From the IMG/VR virus record IMGVR_UViG_3300008114_000858, positions 1 to 5,708 of that record: a stretch of 5,708 nucleotides of DNA. One strand, written 5' to 3'. The first letter of the stretch is position 1, and every line of letters starts with the position of its first letter. This DNA comes from a virus. The notes below the pieces were generated by a model that searched no databases, was not told the DNA's origin, and was given only the letters and a program-made list of their open reading frames with translations. The translations under genes and the position numbers were made by a program. Of the stretch, positions 1 through 5,708 are shown piece by piece.

Positions 1-1735
1 AGTAACGCTGTTTCTTCTTACTAATCATGTACTGAATAAACAGAGCCACGTTGTTTTCCACTACAGTCCAAGCGTTGTACCACTCAATCATTGTCTCCAG
101 GCGTTCATGAGTTTTATTGAGGTCATCAAACCTGCCACACCAGGAAGCCACAATCTTATCCCGCTCAATAGTATTAGTAACCTTTCCGTTGCCCTCATCT
201 TTTATGACTTCCACCGGGTTTTTGTAGATATAGATGGCACAGAGTGATTCAGAGGTTGTAGTCTTACCTTCTCCTACAGGGTCAACAGCGGCATAGTACA
301 TCCCAAACGTAGGATCTTTTGCAGGTCTTTCATACACACAAATAACTCCTTCTTTGTCTTCTGTCTTTTTAGAAATAGGAAACTCCATAATTGGAATCTT
401 CCTTGAAGGTTTGTCTATAATCTTACCTTCTGCGTTTCTAGAAAGATCTAAGTATTCTACTGAGTATTCTTTATCTTGAATACGTTGGATCTGTTTAGAG
501 ACAAGGTGAGGTGGAAATACTGATTCTTTCCTAGTAGCAAAAGCTTCTTCTATGTTTGTTGGCTTCTGCGATATCCTTAACTGATACTGTTCAGGAGTAA
601 GATCTCTCTTCCATCTTATCCTCTCTTCAACTATTGCTGCAAGAGCTTCTTCTACTTTTGAGTTACCATACTGATCTATAAAGGGAGGCATGCTCCACTG
701 CTCAGGAATAAAAAGTCCAGTCTTACCTATAGTTCCATCTTTATCTATAAGATTAGACTCTACAGCATATATATCATTAGCCTCAGGTTGAAGTACCATG
801 AGCTTAAGTGGTTCACAGGCTTCAAGATCACCGACTGAGCCGGCAGCAATAAACATACCTGTAGTAATCATACCACTCTGCATGGCAGGTCTCATGTACT
901 CGTAGGTCTGGTCCATCTTTGGAGCAATACCAGCCTCCTCGTGAAAGAAGTAAGTACACGGACCACCGACACCATTTGTTGGGTCTTTTTCAAAAGAGGT
1001 TCCAGTAATAATAGATTTATTACCCTTGTAAGTATCTCGTCCACTAATACGAACCTTAATACGCTGCTGCCAGGAAAATACTTTATCTGGATCAGATGGT
1101 CTGTACCAAGCAGTATGCTCGTTTAGAAATGTACGGTATTCAGTAAGCATACGCCAAGTACCTTTCTCTGAAATATAATCTTTAAGACTTGCTCCCATCT
1201 TAAGAACGGCACCGTTCTCAAACCAGAACATGTTGATCAACTTAGCTGCATGGAAATACGATGAGGCTATCTGACGTTTCTTTAAAATAGCTGAGTGTTT
1301 GTAGTGCAGTTCTGCTAGCTGTTCATACAAAGCCATGTGATACTGAGCATCTCTGACTTTTGCAAAGTCAAAACGTTTTTCTTCCTTGTCGTAGATAGGA
1401 AGAAAATTCAGCCACATGTAATAATCCCGACTGATATACCATGCATTACCGTTATTTTTTACAATAATGCCTGACTTACACTTCATTTTCTGGTCATCCC
1501 AGTAATTAATAAAGTCTTTAGTTTTTACAGGGGCTGGGCAGTAAAAACCTTGTTGTTGGTATTTTCTAGCTTCAGCATTAAATATCTGACTGCTTTCATC
1601 AAAACCATATTGACCAGGCTCTTTAAATAACTTAACCAAATAGTCTCTGAACTCTTCTCTTGAGTAAAAAGTAGTTAGATCCCACTGCCCATTTTCATAG
1701 GTTGGTACTTCTATATATGGTTTATTTTTCTCCAA
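1..1735 (-). CDS. terL: Terminase large subunit (TerL), T4 gp17-like ATPase plus nuclease. The N-terminal ~578 codons are in the window and the C-terminus lies beyond the left edge.
   Basis: My own translation gives an uninterrupted minus-strand frame from 1735 to position 1 (578 codons plus 1 nt). It is absent from the track because there is no in-window stop. The translation begins (TTG)EKNKPYIEVPTYENGQWDLTTFYSREEFRDYL. A Walker-A-like LKKRQIASS lies at about 1260-1290. A Walker-B/catalytic-Glu-like CTYFFHEEAG lies at about 930-960, followed by GMFIAAGS. An RNase-H-type nuclease Asp motif MYYAAVDPVGEGKT lies at about 260-300. Motif order and spacing resemble T4 gp17 (Walker A near residue 155). 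The start is uncertain: the frame is closed by TAG at 1738-1736, the first in-frame ATG is about 83 codons in, and TTG at 1735-1733 is the only canonical start. Confidence 0.85.
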   Translation of the reverse strand, partial: MEKNKPYIEVPTYENGQWDLTTFYSREEFRDYLVKLFKEPGQYGFDESSQIFNAEARKYQQQGFYCPAPVKTKDFINYWDDQKMKCKSGIIVKNNGNAWYISRDYYMWLNFLPIYDKEEKRFDFAKVRDAQYHMALYEQLAELHYKHSAILKKRQIASSYFHAAKLINMFWFENGAVLKMGASLKDYISEKGTWRMLTEYRTFLNEHTAWYRPSDPDKVFSWQQRIKVRISGRDTYKGNKSIITGTSFEKDPTNGVGGPCTYFFHEEAGIAPKMDQTYEYMRPAMQSGMITTGMFIAAGSVGDLEACEPLKLMVLQPEANDIYAVESNLIDKDGTIGKTGLFIPEQWSMPPFIDQYGNSKVEEALAAIVEERIRWKRDLTPEQYQLRISQKPTNIEEAFATRKESVFPPHLVSKQIQRIQDKEYSVEYLDLSRNAEGKIIDKPSRKIPIMEFPISKKTEDKEGVICVYERPAKDPTFGMYYAAVDPVGEGKTTTSESLCAIYIYKNPVEVIKDEGNGKVTNTIERDKIVASWCGRFDDLNKTHERLETMIEWYNAWTVVENNVALFIQYMISKKKQRY

Positions 1736-1940
1736 CTAGCTTGCTTATTTTCTTTTTGTCTCCACCTGTTTTGTGTAAGATTTCTATCAAAGTATCAATA
1801 GACTTACTTCTTAGAATACCAGGTTTAGTAGAGTCACTCCAATAATCATTATAAAGTTCTCTAGGAATAGCTGCCCAGTTTTTATTATGAGCATTGTAGT
1901 GAAACACATAGTTGTAAAGGGCATAGTCTTTGTTTTCCAT
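1722..1940 (-). CDS. Hypothetical small protein (72 aa) immediately upstream of TerL
   Basis: Track ORF with an ATG start at 1940 and a TAA stop at 1724-1722. The composition is protein-like (MENKDYALYNYVFHYNAHNKNWAAIPRELYNDYW...). It overlaps the putative terL TTG start by 14 nt. I recognise no family. Confidence 0.6.
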   Translation of the reverse strand: MENKDYALYNYVFHYNAHNKNWAAIPRELYNDYWSDSTKPGILRSKSIDTLIEILHKTGGDKKKISKLVGEK

Positions 1941-1956
1941 AAGAATTAATTTAATG

Positions 1957-2030
1957 TGGTTGCGGAGCCTAGAGTTGAACTAGGATTCCTGGGTTATGAG
2001 CCCAGTGTGCTACCGTTACACCACCCCGCG
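1957..2030 (-). tRNA. tRNA-Met (anticodon CAU), initiator (fMet)-like, with encoded 3' CCA
   Basis: Hand-folded 74-nt cloverleaf: CGCGGGG UG GUGU AACGGUA GCAC A CUGGG CUCAUAA CCCAG GAAU CCUAG UUCAACU CUAGG CUCCGCA A CCA. The CAU anticodon is at 1998-1996. It has a C1xA72 mismatch, G29-G31:C39-C41, the discriminator A73 and an encoded CCA. Both the 5' CGCGGGG and the 3' CGCAACCA ends match E. coli tRNA-fMet as I recall it. The 11:24 pair is U:A rather than the initiator-typical A:U. Confidence 0.85.
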
Positions 2031-2039
2031 GTATTTTTG

Positions 2040-2129
2040 CTGTAAGGGGAGGATTTGAACCTCCAAGGATAAGAAACCCTATCCACCTCCGAGACAGGGA
2101 GGCACGTCTGCCAGTTTCGTCACCTTACA
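2040..2129 (-). tRNA. Atypical class-II (long variable arm) tRNA with a GUC (Asp-type) anticodon loop; isotype unresolved
   Basis: Hand-folded 90-nt cloverleaf: UGUAAGG UG ACG AAACUGGCAGA CGU G CCUCC CUGUCUC GGAGG U GGAUAGG GUUU CUUAUCC UU GGAGG UUCAAAU CCUCC CCUUACA G. It has a 7-bp acceptor stem, a canonical T-loop, a 3-bp D stem with GG in the loop, and a 21-nt variable arm with a 7-bp stem. The GUC anticodon is at 2095-2093. There is no encoded CCA. Confidence 0.7.
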
Positions 2130-2770
2130 GTAGAAGTCCATGTAGGACCTATAATAGAAACTAGTTCTTCCTTGTTTTTAAATGGTATACGTTTATGTAC
2201 ACCAATAAAAGGAATCTTAGTTCCCTTCTCTAAAAGTTTATCATCATATATCAGACCTTTATCTACATAGTCTTGATGCCAAAGAACTTTAGGAGCATAA
2301 ACACCAAGTATATAAAAGGTCTTTTCACAGTTATTATCCTTTGTTACAATAATCTGAGGATAACGAGCTTTCTTTTGTTTTACAGGATCAAGCTTCTCAT
2401 ATACTTGATCCGGTATAAAATCAAGCATTGGAGGATTAGCTACTCTATGCGTCTTTACTCCAATATGTAATCCTGCAGGTAATAAATCAGGGATATTCTT
2501 TTTTATATCATATGAAGTATCAGGATCTGTAAATTCTATACCTAAAAACTTCTCTACAGCTCTTTGCCCCATGTGCCCATTAGTACTTCTTTTCTCTAAG
2601 TAGTTGTCATCAATAATGTACTGAGGACCTGCGTCTCGTTTTTTATCTGACCAGTCTACAGAATATTCTTTTCTATAGTTATACTCCTCATCGGTTAGTA
2701 CAACTTTATATGAGTCAGAAAGAACAGACTCTATTCTTTTATTATATTCTCTTATAGATACTATTGTCAT
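2120..2770 (-). CDS. Hypothetical protein (216 aa) with a possible restriction-endonuclease-like (PD-(D/E)xK-like) core
   Basis: Track ORF. The ATG at 2770 overlaps the upstream stop as ATGA (2767-2770). The segment GHMGQRAVEKFLGIEF...IPDLLPAGLHIGVKTHR resembles the G..GE.A...L / (D/E)xDL / xEVK pattern of YraN/Hjc-type nuclease folds, but with Gly where the acidic residue of ExK is expected. This assignment rests on motif recall only. Confidence 0.6.
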   Translation of the reverse strand: MTIVSIREYNKRIESVLSDSYKVVLTDEEYNYRKEYSVDWSDKKRDAGPQYIIDDNYLEKRSTNGHMGQRAVEKFLGIEFTDPDTSYDIKKNIPDLLPAGLHIGVKTHRVANPPMLDFIPDQVYEKLDPVKQKKARYPQIIVTKDNNCEKTFYILGVYAPKVLWHQDYVDKGLIYDDKLLEKGTKIPFIGVHKRIPFKNKEELVSIIGPTWTSTVR

Positions 2771-3279
2771 TGGTCGTATGCTAAGTTTTGTCCTCCTCTT
2801 ACTTGAGACTGCTGCTCTTCTTCCAGATCTCGTAGCGTACCTTTAAAACTTTGCCGGATAGCCTCAAACTTCGCGGCTGCATTAACAAGTGCTGTAATGT
2901 TACCGTCTCTACCGTGCTCAATCTCCGTGGTCTCCATATACTTCGCAAGCCTATCCAACATTGTCTTAATACCCATGTACGCTCTGTACGTGGGAGTTTG
3001 GTATAGTTTCTCACACATTCTAAGACCAACGACAATAAGGTCATCATCAGTGGAAAAGTCAGCATCAATCTCTTGAAGAATAATCTCTTCTTTCTCAGCT
3101 TCGGGTACATCAAAGAAGGGGTTTAGATCAGGGTTAGGGCAGGTCATGTAAAACAGATACGCATATATCCGCAAATGTTCATCTGGATATGAGTCCATAA
3201 TATTTTTAAGAAACTTAAGAGTATAGCAGTGTTCACTTGCTGTTACCTTTCCGTTCTGTATATCAAATAATCTTATCAT
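2767..3279 (-). CDS. Hypothetical acidic protein (170 aa)
   Basis: Track ORF with an ATG at 3279 and a TGA at 2769-2767. The composition is protein-like and predicted to be largely helical, with an acidic centre (EAEKEEIILQEIDADFSTDDD) and the C-terminal end RDLEEEQQSQVRGGQNLAYDQ. I recognise no family. Confidence 0.65.
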   Translation of the reverse strand: MIRLFDIQNGKVTASEHCYTLKFLKNIMDSYPDEHLRIYAYLFYMTCPNPDLNPFFDVPEAEKEEIILQEIDADFSTDDDLIVVGLRMCEKLYQTPTYRAYMGIKTMLDRLAKYMETTEIEHGRDGNITALVNAAAKFEAIRQSFKGTLRDLEEEQQSQVRGGQNLAYDQ

Positions 3280-3289
3280 AATATTTTAT

Positions 3290-3370
3290 TTACCAGGGTC
3301 TACCTGCTCTTGTCATAAGTTCAAGCCGGTATTCTTCTAGCCATTTTAAAAACTTTATAAACTTTTTCAT
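3290..3370 (-). CDS. Putative 26-aa micro-protein (MKKFIKFLKWLEEYRLELMTRAGRPW), not in the supplied track
   Basis: The ATG at 3370-3368 overlaps the TGA of the upstream 72-aa ORF as ATGA, the same coupling used at other junctions here. The TAA stop is at 3292-3290, 10 nt before the next ATG at 3279. The ORF fills what would otherwise be an 87-nt gap in a gap-free operon, and the sequence is amphipathic-helix-like. It is short, so it could occur by chance. Confidence 0.4.
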   Translation of the reverse strand: MKKFIKFLKWLEEYRLELMTRAGRPW

Positions 3371-3585
3371 TGTGGTATTAAATTTTCTCCTGCTGTTGGA
3401 TTTCCGTAAACCTTTATATCATTTTGGTCTACTGTTCTTAGTTCTCCCGTGTGATAAAAGCGTACAATAAACTGAGGATTGCTATGTATTGACCCTGCTA
3501 TCATAAACAAAGCCACACCATGACCAAGCTCACGAACTTCTACATCAAAAGGATTAAGTATTTCATGGATGGTTTGTACAATCAT
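3367..3585 (-). CDS. Hypothetical small protein (72 aa)
   Basis: Track ORF. The ATG at 3585 overlaps the nuclease stop as ATGA (3582-3585). The sequence MIVQTIHEILNPFDVEVRELGHGVALFMIAGSIHSNPQFIVRFYHTGELRTVDQNDIKVYGNP has a beta-rich look. I recognise no family. Confidence 0.6.
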   Translation of the reverse strand: MIVQTIHEILNPFDVEVRELGHGVALFMIAGSIHSNPQFIVRFYHTGELRTVDQNDIKVYGNPTAGENLIPQ

Positions 3586-4415
3586 TGTTTAGCTTTTAAC
3601 TTGTGACGATTATCTTCTAACCAATGCAGTAGTGAAATAACTTCTTGTTTTAAATAAGGCAGATCATACTGTACAATATCTTTTACTATGGGATCACCAT
3701 TACTGTCAAGAGCAGTTATGGGATTACCAAACTTATCTTTATCAACTTCTTCAAACATGATGTGATGTATTGTCAAGCTTCCAAACTTTAATTTTGGATT
3801 ATGCTTTAGTATCATAAACATGTAAGTACTAAGCTGTAAAGCGTAGTGATTAAGATTACAATCATCAAGATGGCTAACAGGAGGAAACATTTTTTGTGTT
3901 ATGCCTTCCCAGTTTGTGTATCCTTCTACTTTAATTTCTTTATTGGTCTTGTAGTCTGTAATATGTACTTCTCCATTGACCACTTCTACTAGATCTGACT
4001 GGCCACAAATACCAGCAGACTTTAAATAAACCATATGCTCGGGATAGACTCCACTAGAAAGCTTCTGGTTTGGAGAATACTTAACTCCGTCTTTTTCTAT
4101 GGGTTTTATAACAGGTATAACTACACCATGGCGTTCCATGGATTCTACTTCACATATATCTTTTTCTCTGCAGTTGTGATACCAGGTACCAAGACTTGTG
4201 GCTCTGTTTGCTTCTGACTTCCAGGCATCCTTGATTGCCTCAGGAGTCATACCATACCACTTTGATTTTTTACTCTTACTTGATTTTTCTGCTATCTTAT
4301 CTGCTTCAAAAGGCTGTTTAAAGTTTGATATAAAAGACGTTACACTTAACCAGTCAATATCGTCTGGTTCTATGCTGCTGTACTTGTGATGTTGAGGGGT
4401 GAATGTTATTATCAT
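3582..4415 (-). CDS. PD-(D/E)xK superfamily nuclease, RecB/Cas4-like exonuclease type (277 aa from the ATG)
   Basis: The track ORF 3582..4427 starts at a TTG. I prefer the ATG at 4415-4413 (MIITFTPQHHKYSS...). The motif order is N-terminal HxY...SVTSFI, then GTWYH, then GQSDLVEV (Asp), then HITDYKTNK (DxK), then YALQLSTY (QxxxY). That order is characteristic of RecB-family PD-(D/E)xK nucleases. There is no C-terminal Cys cluster. Confidence 0.75.
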   Translation of the reverse strand: MIITFTPQHHKYSSIEPDDIDWLSVTSFISNFKQPFEADKIAEKSSKSKKSKWYGMTPEAIKDAWKSEANRATSLGTWYHNCREKDICEVESMERHGVVIPVIKPIEKDGVKYSPNQKLSSGVYPEHMVYLKSAGICGQSDLVEVVNGEVHITDYKTNKEIKVEGYTNWEGITQKMFPPVSHLDDCNLNHYALQLSTYMFMILKHNPKLKFGSLTIHHIMFEEVDKDKFGNPITALDSNGDPIVKDIVQYDLPYLKQEVISLLHWLEDNRHKLKAKQ

Positions 4416-4737
4416 GGGTGAATCCAATTGGGTTATTCATAGGGGTTGTAGATATTGCTTGAAGTACTTCTTGAGGACTATGAAAAGTTGCGTAGAACCT
4501 TCCAGAGAATTTGTCAAACACTACGGATCTGTGTTTGCTAATCTTATTTTTACTATTGACGTACTCTTCTATAGAACTAATACATTCTTTCTTAAACCAT
4601 TTCTTTACCTTAATCTGTTTGACAAGAACTTCTTTCTTTTCTGGAAATAAATCCCCGCCTTCCATCTTTTGATAGATAGTCTTGGTCTTGTAGATTGAAT
4701 GAACCACTTCTAGTTGTATGGAATCATGCGGAATCAA
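4354..4737 (-). CDS. Hypothetical protein (127 aa from TTG 4737, or 103 aa from ATG 4665)
   Basis: Track ORF. The TTG at 4737-4735 overlaps the upstream TGA as TTGA. The first ATG, at 4665-4663, gives MEGGDLFPEKKEV.... The 3' end overlaps the nuclease gene by 62 nt. I recognise no family. Confidence 0.55.
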   Translation of the reverse strand: MIPHDSIQLEVVHSIYKTKTIYQKMEGGDLFPEKKEVLVKQIKVKKWFKKECISSIEEYVNSKNKISKHRSVVFDKFSGRFYATFHSPQEVLQAISTTPMNNPIGFTHDNNIHPSTSQVQQHRTRRY

Positions 4738-5063
4738 ATGCCTAACTTACTTTTTAAAAAATCTTCTTCAGCCTGAGTTATTTCAGCTTTCCATTTACCT
4801 AAAGGACAATCTGAAGAAAGTGATCTGGTTTTAAATGCAAGAGAGCAGCCACATCCTCCTTTTGTCTGATCACAACATGGAGTTGTTCCTGCAACAACAC
4901 AACCAGCATCTTTTTCTGTAAACAAATCACATTGCCGGCAGATGCTCATTCTTTCTTTAGCAATCTGCTCTACATCCTCTTTCTTAAAGATTGAGTTTGT
5001 GATACCTTCAAGTATCTGACCCTTGTTCTTCCAGATTCTGATCACGTTCTCTTTTAGACTCAT
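4734..5063 (-). CDS. Cys-rich small protein (109 aa), probable metal-binding, function unknown
   Basis: Track ORF with an ATG at 5063. It has eight Cys arranged as CRQC-x9-C-x7-CC-x5-CGC-x13-CPLGKW. I recall the pattern R..iCxxC ... CGC ... CPxxKW from an uncharacterised family found in bacteria and phages (possibly Pfam DUF6171), but I have not verified that. Confidence 0.65.
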   Translation of the reverse strand: MSLKENVIRIWKNKGQILEGITNSIFKKEDVEQIAKERMSICRQCDLFTEKDAGCVVAGTTPCCDQTKGGCGCSLAFKTRSLSSDCPLGKWKAEITQAEEDFLKSKLGI

Positions 5064-5427
5064 AGCTTGTTCGTTTATGCATTTTTATAAACTCAGCTCT
5101 CTGTTGCTCTTCCTCCATTATTTTTTTAAGATTCCTTAGATCATAAAGCGTTTCTGCTGTTTTATAACGAGCAGTCATTTGCTGAAGACCTTTTTGCTTG
5201 TTGTTCTCTTCAAACTTCTCAAGCATTTGTATCTTATCATCCAGCTTCCAATGCTTTGTCACAAAATCACCAAGATTTGTGATGTGCACTCTGGAATGTT
5301 TAAGTGCACTAAGACTTTTCCTTACTTCTTGCCAGTAGTATGACACAATAGTTTCAACAGCATCTGGACTCAAGCCCGTCTGCTGTGCCACTTCAGGTAT
5401 AAACTCTTTAGCTTTCCTGGGTCGCAA
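5008..5427 (-). CDS. HU/IHF-like (histone-like) DNA-binding domain protein with a non-canonical helical C-terminus (139 aa)
   Basis: Track ORF starting at TTG 5427-5425. The first in-frame ATG is at codon 67, inside the domain. The N-terminal segment KAKEFIPEVAQQTGLSPDAVETIVSYYWQEVRKSLSALKHSRVHITNLGDFVTK aligns by eye to the HU/IHF helix-turn-helix body and first strand (compare E. coli HupA [50 protein letters not shown]). The beta-ribbon arm region is replaced by a charged helical tail. Confidence 0.5.
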   Translation of the reverse strand: MRPRKAKEFIPEVAQQTGLSPDAVETIVSYYWQEVRKSLSALKHSRVHITNLGDFVTKHWKLDDKIQMLEKFEENNKQKGLQQMTARYKTAETLYDLRNLKKIMEEEQQRAEFIKMHKRTSYESKRERDQNLEEQGSDT

Positions 5428-5708
5428 CGCAGAGGAATTTAAAATCCAATAAAATGTTTCCTCGTGAGCTGACTTTCATATCAGGATTGATATATATCTT
5501 CTTCTTGTTCTTTCCCTCTTTCTTAATCAAGTTTTTCTTTTCAGCTTTTGTAAGACAGTTTCTTACAGATTGAGTAGAAGAAAATATCTTCTTCTCAAAA
5601 GCCTTGCTACAAAAACTTGTAAGTTCTTGATCTCCTTCTATGGCAAGAAGAGTAAGACAGTTCAGATCTGCTTCACTAACTGGTATGTCATACAGGTAAC
5701 AGTGCGTA
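5408..5708 (-). CDS. C-terminal 99 codons of a protein whose start lies beyond the right edge; possible winged-helix/HTH DNA-binding protein
   Basis: My own translation gives an open minus-strand frame from 5707 to the TAA at 5410-5408: THCYLYDIPVSEADLNCLTLLAIEGDQELTSFCSKAFEKKIFSSTQSVRNCLTKAEKKNLIKKEGKNKKKIYINPDMKVSSRGNILLDFKFLCVATQES. The stretch SSTQSVRNCLTKAEKKNLIKKEG...IYINP looks like a wHTH recognition helix plus wing. The fold call is tentative. Confidence 0.5.
   Translation of the reverse strand, partial: THCYLYDIPVSEADLNCLTLLAIEGDQELTSFCSKAFEKKIFSSTQSVRNCLTKAEKKNLIKKEGKNKKKIYINPDMKVSSRGNILLDFKFLCVATQES

Follow-up and report, generated by a model that had tools for sequence, protein, structure and literature searches.

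Long variable arms are joined to class-I-amino-acid anticodons in the nev-tRNAs of nematodes. The allo-tRNAs have the same combination, with GUC among their predominant anticodons and some members in phages; they divide the acceptor and T stems 8/4 or 9/3 and cover 35 codons, a diversity possible because the enzyme that charges them does not read the anticodon (Mukai et al., 2017, PMC5389517). The staphylococcal non-elongator tRNA-Gly that serves peptidoglycan is a paralogue beside a canonical isoacceptor and lacks the T-stem pairs that give strong EF-Tu binding (PMC1904265), and phage tRNAs that counter host defences carry deviant anticodon loops (PMC10264068, PMC11464382, PMC11555353). Here we analyze a 90-nucleotide (nt) tRNA-like element with the anticodon GUC, which lies on the minus strand of a 5,708-nt stretch of viral DNA (positions 1 to 5,708 of IMG/VR record IMGVR_UViG_3300008114_000858; hereafter the window). 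Comparison with homologues places the element, as its minimal member, in a large family that occurs both in Bacteroidota and in the viruses of these bacteria and is apparently an undescribed kind of tRNA-like RNA. We put at roughly even odds (about 0.5) the reading that it is a non-elongator tRNA-like RNA charged by aspartyl-tRNA synthetase (AspRS), acting as a specialised aspartyl carrier or as an AspRS-linked regulator.

The family differs from each of these systems. It shares with the allo-tRNAs the long variable arm and the class-I-amino-acid anticodon, but its stems are split 7/5 and its anticodon loop is essentially fixed, and the 7/5 split led us to reject membership in that group. Its resemblance to the staphylococcal tRNA-Gly lies in standing beside a canonical isoacceptor and in the T stem; that type, unlike the family, shows no class switch and no arm expansions, has a known acceptor pathway and is unreported in phage arrays. 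Taken together, the working of the family would be most like that of non-elongator tRNA paralogues, from which its class switch and structured expansions set it apart. Unlike the defence-countering phage tRNAs, the deviant form is here a host chromosomal gene as well, and the whole body has changed class.

Two standard tools detect the element: ARAGORN calls a tRNA-Asp(gtc) at 2039–2129 of the minus strand, and the Rfam model RF00005 matches 2040–2129 of that strand at 41.8 bits (gathering score 29, E = 1.6e-6). The original prediction, made from the letters of the window and naming no strand, had described a 90-nt cloverleaf with a 21-nt variable arm containing a 7-base-pair (bp) stem, a 3-bp D stem with an 11-nt loop, a single possible anticodon arm (CCUCC/GGAGG) around the loop CUGUCUC, and the nucleotides G73, G2-C71 and C38. 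All of these were recovered when the reverse complement was read by coordinate (Table 1), as was the lack of an encoded CCA: G73 is followed by CAA, whereas the neighbouring tRNA encodes CCA. Nucleotides U8 and G9 directly follow the acceptor 5′ strand UGUAAGG, and G26 sits between the D arm and the anticodon stem. The variable arm exceeds 10 nt and forms a stem-loop, and together with the 3-bp D stem this places the element in class II. A decoding tRNA has U33 and a purine at position 37; the element has U33, but its nucleotide 37 is U. Although the minimum-free-energy fold is the cloverleaf, it is only 2.1 standard deviations better than that of shuffled sequences (z = −2.1), and since a single-sequence fold is weak evidence, comparative data were needed to settle whether the structure is real. 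They identify the cloverleaf as a real, conserved RNA gene.

For this comparison we aligned 66 distinct phage and bacterial cores, excising the variable arm to keep register. Paired cells make up 99.2% of the alignment, against 44–64% in slid controls, and compensatory changes on both sides occur at 15 of the 20 pairs, a level reached by 0 of 500 shuffles. Covariation among related phages had been proposed as a check, and it extends beyond them: all five pairs of the anticodon stem, which search patterns and parser left free, covary, as do the 7-bp acceptor stem, the 5-bp T stem (including pair 49-65, where U8 cannot pair with C65) and the D-stem pairs 10-25 and 11-24, the latter being U-A in 48 cores and C-G in 16. 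U1-A72 and G2-C71 are present in 66 of 66 cores. The tRNA core nucleotides U8, A14 and G18G19, the T-loop UUCRA and G53-C61 (65 of 66 cores) form invariant columns; the search patterns fixed several of these, and the parser placed only partial constraints on the T loop and G53-C61. These patterns are those of a functional tRNA-family RNA under purifying selection.

Variable arms in the family range from 15 to more than 110 nt, and the structured arms of relatives of the window element start at 35 nt. The long ones share three helices (RNAalifold), with compensatory changes at 11 of 12 predicted pairs. The helices flank an invariant internal loop in which (G)AUAAA faces CUAA, possibly a UAA/GAN-type motif, and the domain also contains an invariant GGGUUGACCAC and a variable hairpin. 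Because three close relatives, whose terminase large subunits (TerL) are 90–92% identical to that of the window (L005–L007), carry a 144-nt long form, the plain hairpin of the window element is best described as the minimised version of this domain. Several other readings failed. Pairing of GGGUUGACCAC with the outer arm helix shows no covariation; a TTGACC motif was rejected as a −35 box because its distance to −10-like sequences changes with the inserted hairpin; conserved UAA/UGA triplets at the 5′ edge of the arm leave no room for a tmRNA-like tag open reading frame (ORF); and the hammerhead-like CUGAUAAAG matched no ribozyme family.

All counts from our scans of viral, prokaryotic-genome and metagenome collections are lower bounds. 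The first viral scan used the conserved 5′ part, with the acceptor start and D arm fixed by the pattern and the anticodon free, and complete elements had to show at least 6 of 7 acceptor pairs and at least 4 of 5 T-stem pairs. It returned at least 119 stretches and at least 74 distinct complete elements of 84–174 nt, and the family is present in more than 100 viral contigs. ARAGORN and Rfam are blind to most of the long phage forms. ARAGORN did find GTC tRNAs of 91–96 nt upstream of the terminase gene in five related loci; these have compensatory stem changes, and their variable arms are unrelated in sequence and always form a hairpin. A profile search found a copy in 25 of 80 terminase loci; phage tRNA-Leu genes also score on the profile of the 5′ half. 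In phage arrays of 8–25 tRNAs, the element lies on the same strand, 3–7 nt from its neighbours. Bacteroidota have a canonical tRNA-Asp, and in seven arrays the element stands alongside a canonical class-I tRNA-Asp(GUC); several arrays also hold tRNA-Asn(GUU).

The anticodon loop was left unconstrained in these scans, which together with ten metagenome copies described below provide the pattern-independent evidence for its conservation. Among 70 in-register phage copies, G34 occurs in 69, U35 in 70, C36 in 62, U37 in 67 and C38 in 69, so that GUC and U37, whose conservation had been proposed as a check, are largely constant; the other eight copies have U36 and form a GUU sister group. U33 is present in 56 of the 70 (G in 8, A in 5, C in 1). 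A second viral scan, blind to the anticodon and using the variable-arm motif alone, mostly matched coding DNA by chance. It nevertheless recovered about 20 family members, many with an extra hairpin in the D loop. All of them have U1-A72, G73 and C74; pair 49-65 is mostly G-C (A-U or C-G in four) and pair 51-63 always contains U. The 13 that parsed have G34 U35 C36 U37 without exception, with C38 in 12 and C33 in 12. Three independent routes (the 5′ half, the D arm plus loop in genomes, and the anticodon-blind arm motif) thus give the same fixed features: U1-A72, G2-C71, G73-C74, GUCU(C), G49-C65 and a U-containing 51-63 pair.

Two phage subgroups stand out. In eleven loci, the family body with U1-A72 and G73 carries the loop YUGUUUC (anticodon GUU, “Asn”), short arms and T in place of C at position 74. 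In twelve others, some of them on contigs of 190–350 kb (jumbo phages), the D loop contains the extra hairpin, as in GUGAAA-GGAUAUAUCC-ACGGCAUACAC, and C33 replaces U33. U33 is lost in 12 of 13 copies of this D-loop-hairpin subgroup and in 12 of the 114 bacterial copies described below.

The body of the family resembles that of tRNA-Leu. It has a 3-bp D stem and an 11-nt D loop (AAAYUGGYAGA) with A14, A15 and G18G19, an A15-U48 Levitt pair, and a variable stem with a single unpaired nucleotide on its 5′ side and two on its 3′ side. A likeness of the D arm to bacterial tRNA-Leu had been suggested in the original prediction, and it was confirmed when an anticodon-free metagenome scan with the D-arm pattern returned at least 88 complete tRNAs. 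Among these, 77 have G1-C72 (or G·U) and A73, and 75 of the 77 carry Leu anticodons (GAG, UAA, UAG, CAA, CAG), the two non-Leu triplets probably being parsing errors. One is an ordinary tRNA-Gln, and the remaining ten have U1-A72, G73, a long arm and the loop NN[G/A]UCU[C/A]. Intermediates between the tRNA-Leu set and the family were absent from the 88. We therefore describe the body as tRNA-Leu-type class II, on the evidence of these alignments, separated from tRNA-Leu by a linked set of differences: U1-A72 rather than G1-C72, G73 rather than A73, the GUC anticodon loop, and A51-U63 where tRNA-Leu mostly has G51-C63. The same metagenome collection contains eight tRNA-Leu-like 5′ halves whose sequences diverge immediately behind the anticodon loop (CUUAGGA / CUUAAAA). 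No complete tRNA could be parsed from them, and they may be intron-containing tRNA-Leu genes.

The family is also chromosomal. We scanned one prokaryotic genome per species with a pattern that combined the D arm with GTYTC at positions 34–38 and left positions 1–6 free. It matched at least 120 stretches; record titles, given for about 80, were all from Bacteroidota but one, an alphaproteobacterial match that does not parse as a tRNA. Carriers among the matches listed include Pedobacter, Chitinophaga, Saprospiraceae, Cyclobacteriaceae, Cytophagaceae, Flavobacteriales, Bacteroidaceae and others. At least 114 distinct bacterial copies, 107–192 nt long, were obtained, in which the invariance of the loop is imposed by the pattern. 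U1-A72 and G2-C71, which the pattern left unconstrained, occur in all 114; G73 followed by C74 occurs in 113, every copy with G73 having C74, and 24 encode the full CCA. Many have a Bacteroidota-type promoter motif (TAnnTTTG) 30–46 nt upstream and a terminator-like hairpin downstream. Because of the promoter motif, the hairpin, C74 and the encoded CCA, they resemble stable-RNA genes, and they appear to be transcription units of their own with tRNA-like leader and trailer. ARAGORN called none of the bacterial copies in 16 loci tested. Rfam matched the generic tRNA model, marginally at threshold, in one 107-nt copy and no other family in the bacterial long forms; at permissive E-values, the phage and bacterial long forms together gave no family beyond that marginal generic tRNA match. 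Since standard tRNA finders and Rfam miss most members, the annotations of the Bacteroidota genomes concerned probably lack them. We found no Rfam 15 model of the family and no prior description in the searchable literature, although it may be described elsewhere. By this distribution the family is cellular across Bacteroidota and recurrent in their phages, and a phage-only novelty is ruled out. The original prediction had placed the element as a phage tRNA; that placement stands for the window, whereas the family proves to be Bacteroidota-wide, cellular and coexistent with canonical tRNA-Asp.

A divergent gene for an Lrp/AsnC-family regulator (157 amino acids; PF01037, PF13404) lies about 155–630 nt upstream in 81 of 120 bacterial loci, with sufB and sufC beyond it by our reading of the sequence. 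The divergent layout may mean that the regulator controls the RNA gene; plain synteny is the alternative. Tandem arrays of 3–5 copies occur in Persicobacter diffluens (five copies at 172-nt spacing), a member of the Saprospiraceae and one of the Cyclobacteriaceae. In Pedobacter, two types lie side by side, one of about 108–112 nt with the acceptor strand UGUAGGG and one of about 141–145 nt with UGUUGGG. Five loci of Marinoscillum / Cyclobacteriaceae share a trailer motif, TTTTGGGTTAATGTTGTTT, between the element and the terminator hairpin, 5–30 nt downstream.

Which amino acid would such an RNA carry? Aspartate identity depends mainly on G73, G34, U35, C36 and C38, with G2-C71 a minor element and the anticodon determinants strongest in bacteria (PMC9976931). 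All five strong determinants are present in the window element and are fixed or nearly so in the family, together with the minor G2-C71; drift is seen at positions 32 and 33, neither of which contributes to identity. Since the positions fixed in the family are the published Asp identity set, charging by AspRS is the most economical explanation. GUC, C38, G73 and G2-C71 are common to the family and the canonical class-I bacterial tRNA-Asp(GUC) (PMC9976931), which it does not resemble in its class-II body, Leu-type D arm, long variable arm, U1-A72, U37 and unconserved U33. The family also has traits of bacterial tRNA-Asn, namely U1-A72, G73, G49-C65 and A51-U63, and includes the GUU sister subgroup; it differs from tRNA-Asn in having mostly C36 rather than U36, U37 and C38 rather than a modified A37 and A38, a class-II body and an enlarged D loop. 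The E. coli tRNA-Asp loop is CUGUCAC, from which the window loop differs only at position 37.

The T stem bears on whether a charged form would reach the ribosome. Because aspartate itself binds EF-Tu weakly, tRNA-Asp needs G49-U65 and G51-C63 for EF-Tu binding, and Asp-tRNA-Asn, with G49-C65 and A51-U63, has no measurable affinity (Roy et al., PMC1904265). The family has the pairs of tRNA-Asn and not those of tRNA-Asp: among 186 distinct members, pair 49-65 is G-C in 176 and G-U in 4, and pair 51-63 is A-U in 159, U-A in 20 and G51-C63 in none. Canonical tRNA-Asp genes resident in the same arrays have G51-C63 in four of five cases, U65 in four of five and A37 in four of five. U33 is near-universal in decoding tRNAs. 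Given the coexistence with canonical tRNA-Asp in arrays, the T-stem pairs, the loss of U33, the fixed pyrimidine 37 and the expansions of arm and D loop, the element probably does something other than routine decoding. Among the three options raised at the outset, a class-II-shaped tRNA-Asp therefore comes closest, in that the fixed positions are those of Asp identity, but the same signatures speak against a routine elongator.

We propose that the RNA would be transcribed with neighbouring tRNAs, processed by RNase P and the 3′-end/CCA machinery, and charged with Asp by the AspRS of the host; AsnRS or a non-discriminating AspRS would act on the GUU sister group. Because of G49-C65/A51-U63, U37, the dispensable U33 and the bulky insertions in the variable arm and sometimes the D loop, the Asp-charged form is expected to be a poor substrate for EF-Tu and the ribosome. 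It would then act as a non-elongator aspartyl carrier or an AspRS-linked regulatory RNA, neither a decoder of GAY codons nor a recoding device, and phages would bring it along with their other tRNAs. From the features above we infer that AspRS charges the RNA, that EF-Tu excludes it and that it has such a role downstream. A more specific version, which we consider doubtful, makes the family a new kind of “metabolic” or non-ribosomal tRNA, in use throughout the Bacteroidota and copied by the phages of these bacteria, whose AspRS-loaded Asp is amidated by GatCAB or donated to a non-ribosomal acceptor. Here the RNA might serve as the scaffold for conversion of Asp to Asn or as the donor itself, the variable-arm and D-loop expansions might be docking or regulatory modules, and the adjoining Lrp/AsnC-type regulator might tie expression to amino-acid status. 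Bacterial tRNA-Asn is the natural substrate of GatCAB on the route from Asp to Asn; features of the tRNA-Asn type favour this amidation (PMC1635274) and prevent EF-Tu from binding the Asp-charged form (PMC1904265). U1-A72 is a bacterial GatCAB determinant, with G1-C72 and an extra D-loop nucleotide as antideterminants (PMC1635274, PMC2811023), and some Bacteroidetes genera encode AsnRS, GlnRS and GatCAB together (PMC4206432). In the family, U1-A72 is invariant and the D loop is of the enlarged class-II type; the latter argues against recognition by GatCAB, and a GUC-bearing RNA charged with Asn would be dangerous if it reached the ribosome.

Several observations weigh against charging by AspRS and exclusion from translation. 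G10 is not conserved (R10 in the family, A10 in the window), and the invariance of U37 has no explanation in AspRS identity. The functional steps apply identity rules from E. coli, yeast and Thermus, not Bacteroidota. A position inside phage tRNA arrays would also be expected of a real decoder. Class II synthetases reach the tRNA on its major-groove side (PMC7373986). That side faces the variable region, and a long arm might therefore obstruct AspRS. All copies have U1-A72, whereas bacterial tRNA-Asp strictly conserves G1-C72 as well as the G2-C71 that the family shares; G1-C72 reportedly contributes to placing the 3′ end in E. coli AspRS (PMC9976931). Finally, moving both tRNA-Asn pairs into tRNA-Asp lowers EF-Tu affinity only about tenfold (PMC1904265), so some ribosomal use is still possible.

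Among other explanations, that of a genuine elongator tRNA-Asp isoacceptor with a class-II body deserves most attention, though we think it rather unlikely. Such a tRNA would decode GAC and GAU, and phages and cells might retain it for a resistance, owed to its altered body and anticodon loop (U37, variable 32/33), to the tRNA-targeting nucleases or toxins that attack canonical tRNA-Asp. Leu, Ser and Tyr tRNAs show that the ribosome accepts long variable arms, the Asp identity positions are fixed, the spacing inside phage arrays is tRNA-like and GAY codons are read as Asp in the phage (below). Variable arms of more than 100 nt and D-loop hairpins are another matter, and we know of no precedent for either in elongators; the repeated loss of U33 and the fixed pyrimidine 37 also speak against decoding. 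Phage tRNAs reportedly evade tRNA-targeting defences through anticodon-loop changes, or neutralise them (PMC10264068, PMC11464382, PMC11555353), but because host chromosomes carry the same form, it is not an escape variant specific to phages. The T-stem pairs, moreover, are of the weak-EF-Tu type and never of the tRNA-Asp type (PMC1904265). It is also conceivable, but quite improbable, that the element is an uncharged mimic: a decoy or sponge for a protein that binds the tRNA-Asp loop, such as an anticodon nuclease, a modification enzyme or AspRS, or a regulatory RNA acting through its arm. Conservation that centres on a 5-nt loop motif and on structured domains with invariant single-stranded GGGUUGACCAC and AUAAA/CUAA would suit such a role, as would the tandem arrays and the regulator adjoining 81 of 120 bacterial copies. 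However, G73-C74 and U1-A72/G2-C71 vary no more than the loop does, and CCA is encoded in 24 copies, which points to a functional aminoacyl-acceptor end, and phage copies that drop the variable-arm domain keep the acceptor and loop features.

The original prediction had also raised charging with Ser or Leu followed by insertion at GAY codons, as deliberate mistranslation or recoding, and a decaying pseudo-tRNA. The former is now very improbable. Serine identity depends on the long arm and ignores the anticodon, bacterial tRNA-Ser conserves G1-C72 and G2-C71, and switches from Leu to Ser identity follow changes of A73 to G73 (PMC9976931); Ser-inserting allo-tRNAs with GUC anticodons exist (PMC5389517). 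The long arm, G73 and G2-C71 of the family are accordingly SerRS-friendly, but its U1-A72 replaces the conserved G1-C72, C11-G24 is not conserved, and the arm has Leu-like geometry and too wide a range of lengths to be Ser-like. A synthetase that ignores the anticodon would also leave no reason for positions 34–36 and 38 to be fixed, unlike the 35 anticodons of the allo-tRNAs. For LeuRS, which looks to A73 along with A15-U48, G18G19 and A20a, the A15-U48 pair and D-loop features are in place, but G73 is found throughout the family and A73 in all tRNA-Leu genes with a matching D arm; A73 is needed for leucine identity in E. coli, and the G73 of tRNA-Ser acts as an antideterminant that wards off LeuRS and TyrRS (PMC9976931). 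As a direct test of recoding, we aligned the 32 GAY codons of the window terminase to 81 relatives. D makes up 76.5% of aligned residues in these columns, with E at 7.0%, N at 5.4% and S at 1.0%, and L is not one of the main replacements; in true S columns the replacements are T/N/A, and in true L columns they are I/V/M. At five GAY positions, one of them in the motif AAVDP, all relatives have D, even the distant terminases of FpV4 and the crAss-like cr130_1. Because GAY columns exchange with E and N, and not with S/T/A or L/I/V, and mark Asp that is invariant in distant TerLs, GAY is evidently Asp in this phage; wholesale recoding is excluded, and from sequence rare mistranslation is still possible. 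As for a decaying pseudo-tRNA or a chance cloverleaf, the non-purine 37, the missing CCA and the modest z-score would fit, but 99% pairing, the compensatory changes, 186 distinct homologues and conservation across bacterial families and many phage lineages refute decay and leave this explanation close to negligible.

Should its existence be confirmed, the family would represent a separate tRNA lineage, spread through a whole phylum, whose class-II, Leu-type body has taken on the identity set of the class-I amino acid Asp and whose variable arm has become a platform for large structured insertions. It would bear on how tRNA identity switches occur, since several linked changes appear together with no intermediates found, on how cells keep special aminoacyl-tRNAs off the ribosome, and on why phages carry particular tRNA-like genes. 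The idea of sense-codon recoding gives way to an experimentally tractable and apparently undescribed RNA class.

Table 1. Coordinates of the element, its parts and the adjacent tRNA gene in the window
Feature	Position	Strand	Support
Complete 90-nt class-II tRNA-like RNA, positions 1–73, anticodon GUC	2040..2129	-	ARAGORN, Rfam RF00005, homologue covariation
Acceptor stem 5′ strand UGUAAGG; U1, G2 and U3 fixed in the family	2123..2129	-	homologue counts
D arm ACG-AAACUGGCAGA-CGU; 3-bp stem, 11-nt loop, tRNA-Leu type (A14, A15, G18G19)	2104..2120	-	
Anticodon arm CCUCC-CUGUCUC-GGAGG; GUC at 2095–2093, U37 at 2092, C38 at 2091	2086..2102	-	
21-nt variable arm UGGAUAGGGUUUCUUAUCCUU; U44, 7-bp hairpin GGAUAGG-GUUU-CUUAUCC, then U47, U48	2065..2085	-	
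T arm GGAGG-UUCAAAU-CCUCC with G49-C65, A51-U63	2048..2064	-	
Acceptor 3′ strand CCUUACA, discriminator G73 (2040), C74 (2039)	2039..2047	-	
Initiator-type tRNA-Met(CAU), 9 nt downstream, same strand; two-gene tRNA cluster	1957..2030	-	ARAGORN, Rfam 58.6 bits

All genes of the window lie on the minus strand. Their products include an HU-like protein, an exonuclease of the PD-(D/E)XK type and the terminase large subunit (phrog_6681, E = 1.7e-58). This terminase shares about 25% identity with its counterparts in crAss-like and Flavobacterium phages and has more than 80 close relatives (67–99% identity) in IMG/VR contigs, and because of these relatives the window is probably a fragment of an uncultured phage with a Bacteroidota host. 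Megablast of the window and blastn of the short and long forms against 50,697 phage records returned no informative relative. A match to the Rfam family RAGATH-19 inside the exonuclease ORF (3722–3839, minus strand; 25.5 bits against a gathering score of 85.6, E = 0.82) was judged to be chance. The adjacent tRNA-Met(CAU) has the hallmarks of a bacterial initiator, with a C1×A72 mismatch, an encoded CCA and, at the base of the anticodon stem, three G-C pairs in a row (GGG/CCC).

Some phage tRNAs outside the family also have unusual shapes. One array (L128) contains a 93-nt tRNA-Met(CAU) and an 88-nt tRNA-Asn(GUU) (9462–9554 and 9966–10053) with class-I bodies and enlarged variable regions, and phages of this kind may tolerate arm expansion more widely. 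Another (L195) contains a class-I tRNA-Asp(GUC) at 2288–2363 with the loop CUGUCUA (U37, A38), and thus a pyrimidine at position 37 in a phage tRNA-Asp of canonical shape.

The order in phage loci is syntenic: exonuclease, a 170-amino-acid ORF, an ORF of about 210 amino acids, the element, sometimes another tRNA, a small ORF and the terminase. We considered the ORF of about 210 amino acids as a conserved protein partner and rejected it, as it has no family match (the 216-amino-acid version in the window matches nothing in Pfam, PHROG or NCBIfam) and no counterpart in the bacterial loci of the element. ORFs of about 205–218 amino acids, in three sequence clusters, nonetheless terminate at the 5′ end of the element in 44 related phage loci. 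In the window, the 216-amino-acid ORF (2120–2770, minus strand) overlaps the RNA by 10 nt, and its TGA stop codon is made by tRNA positions 8–10.

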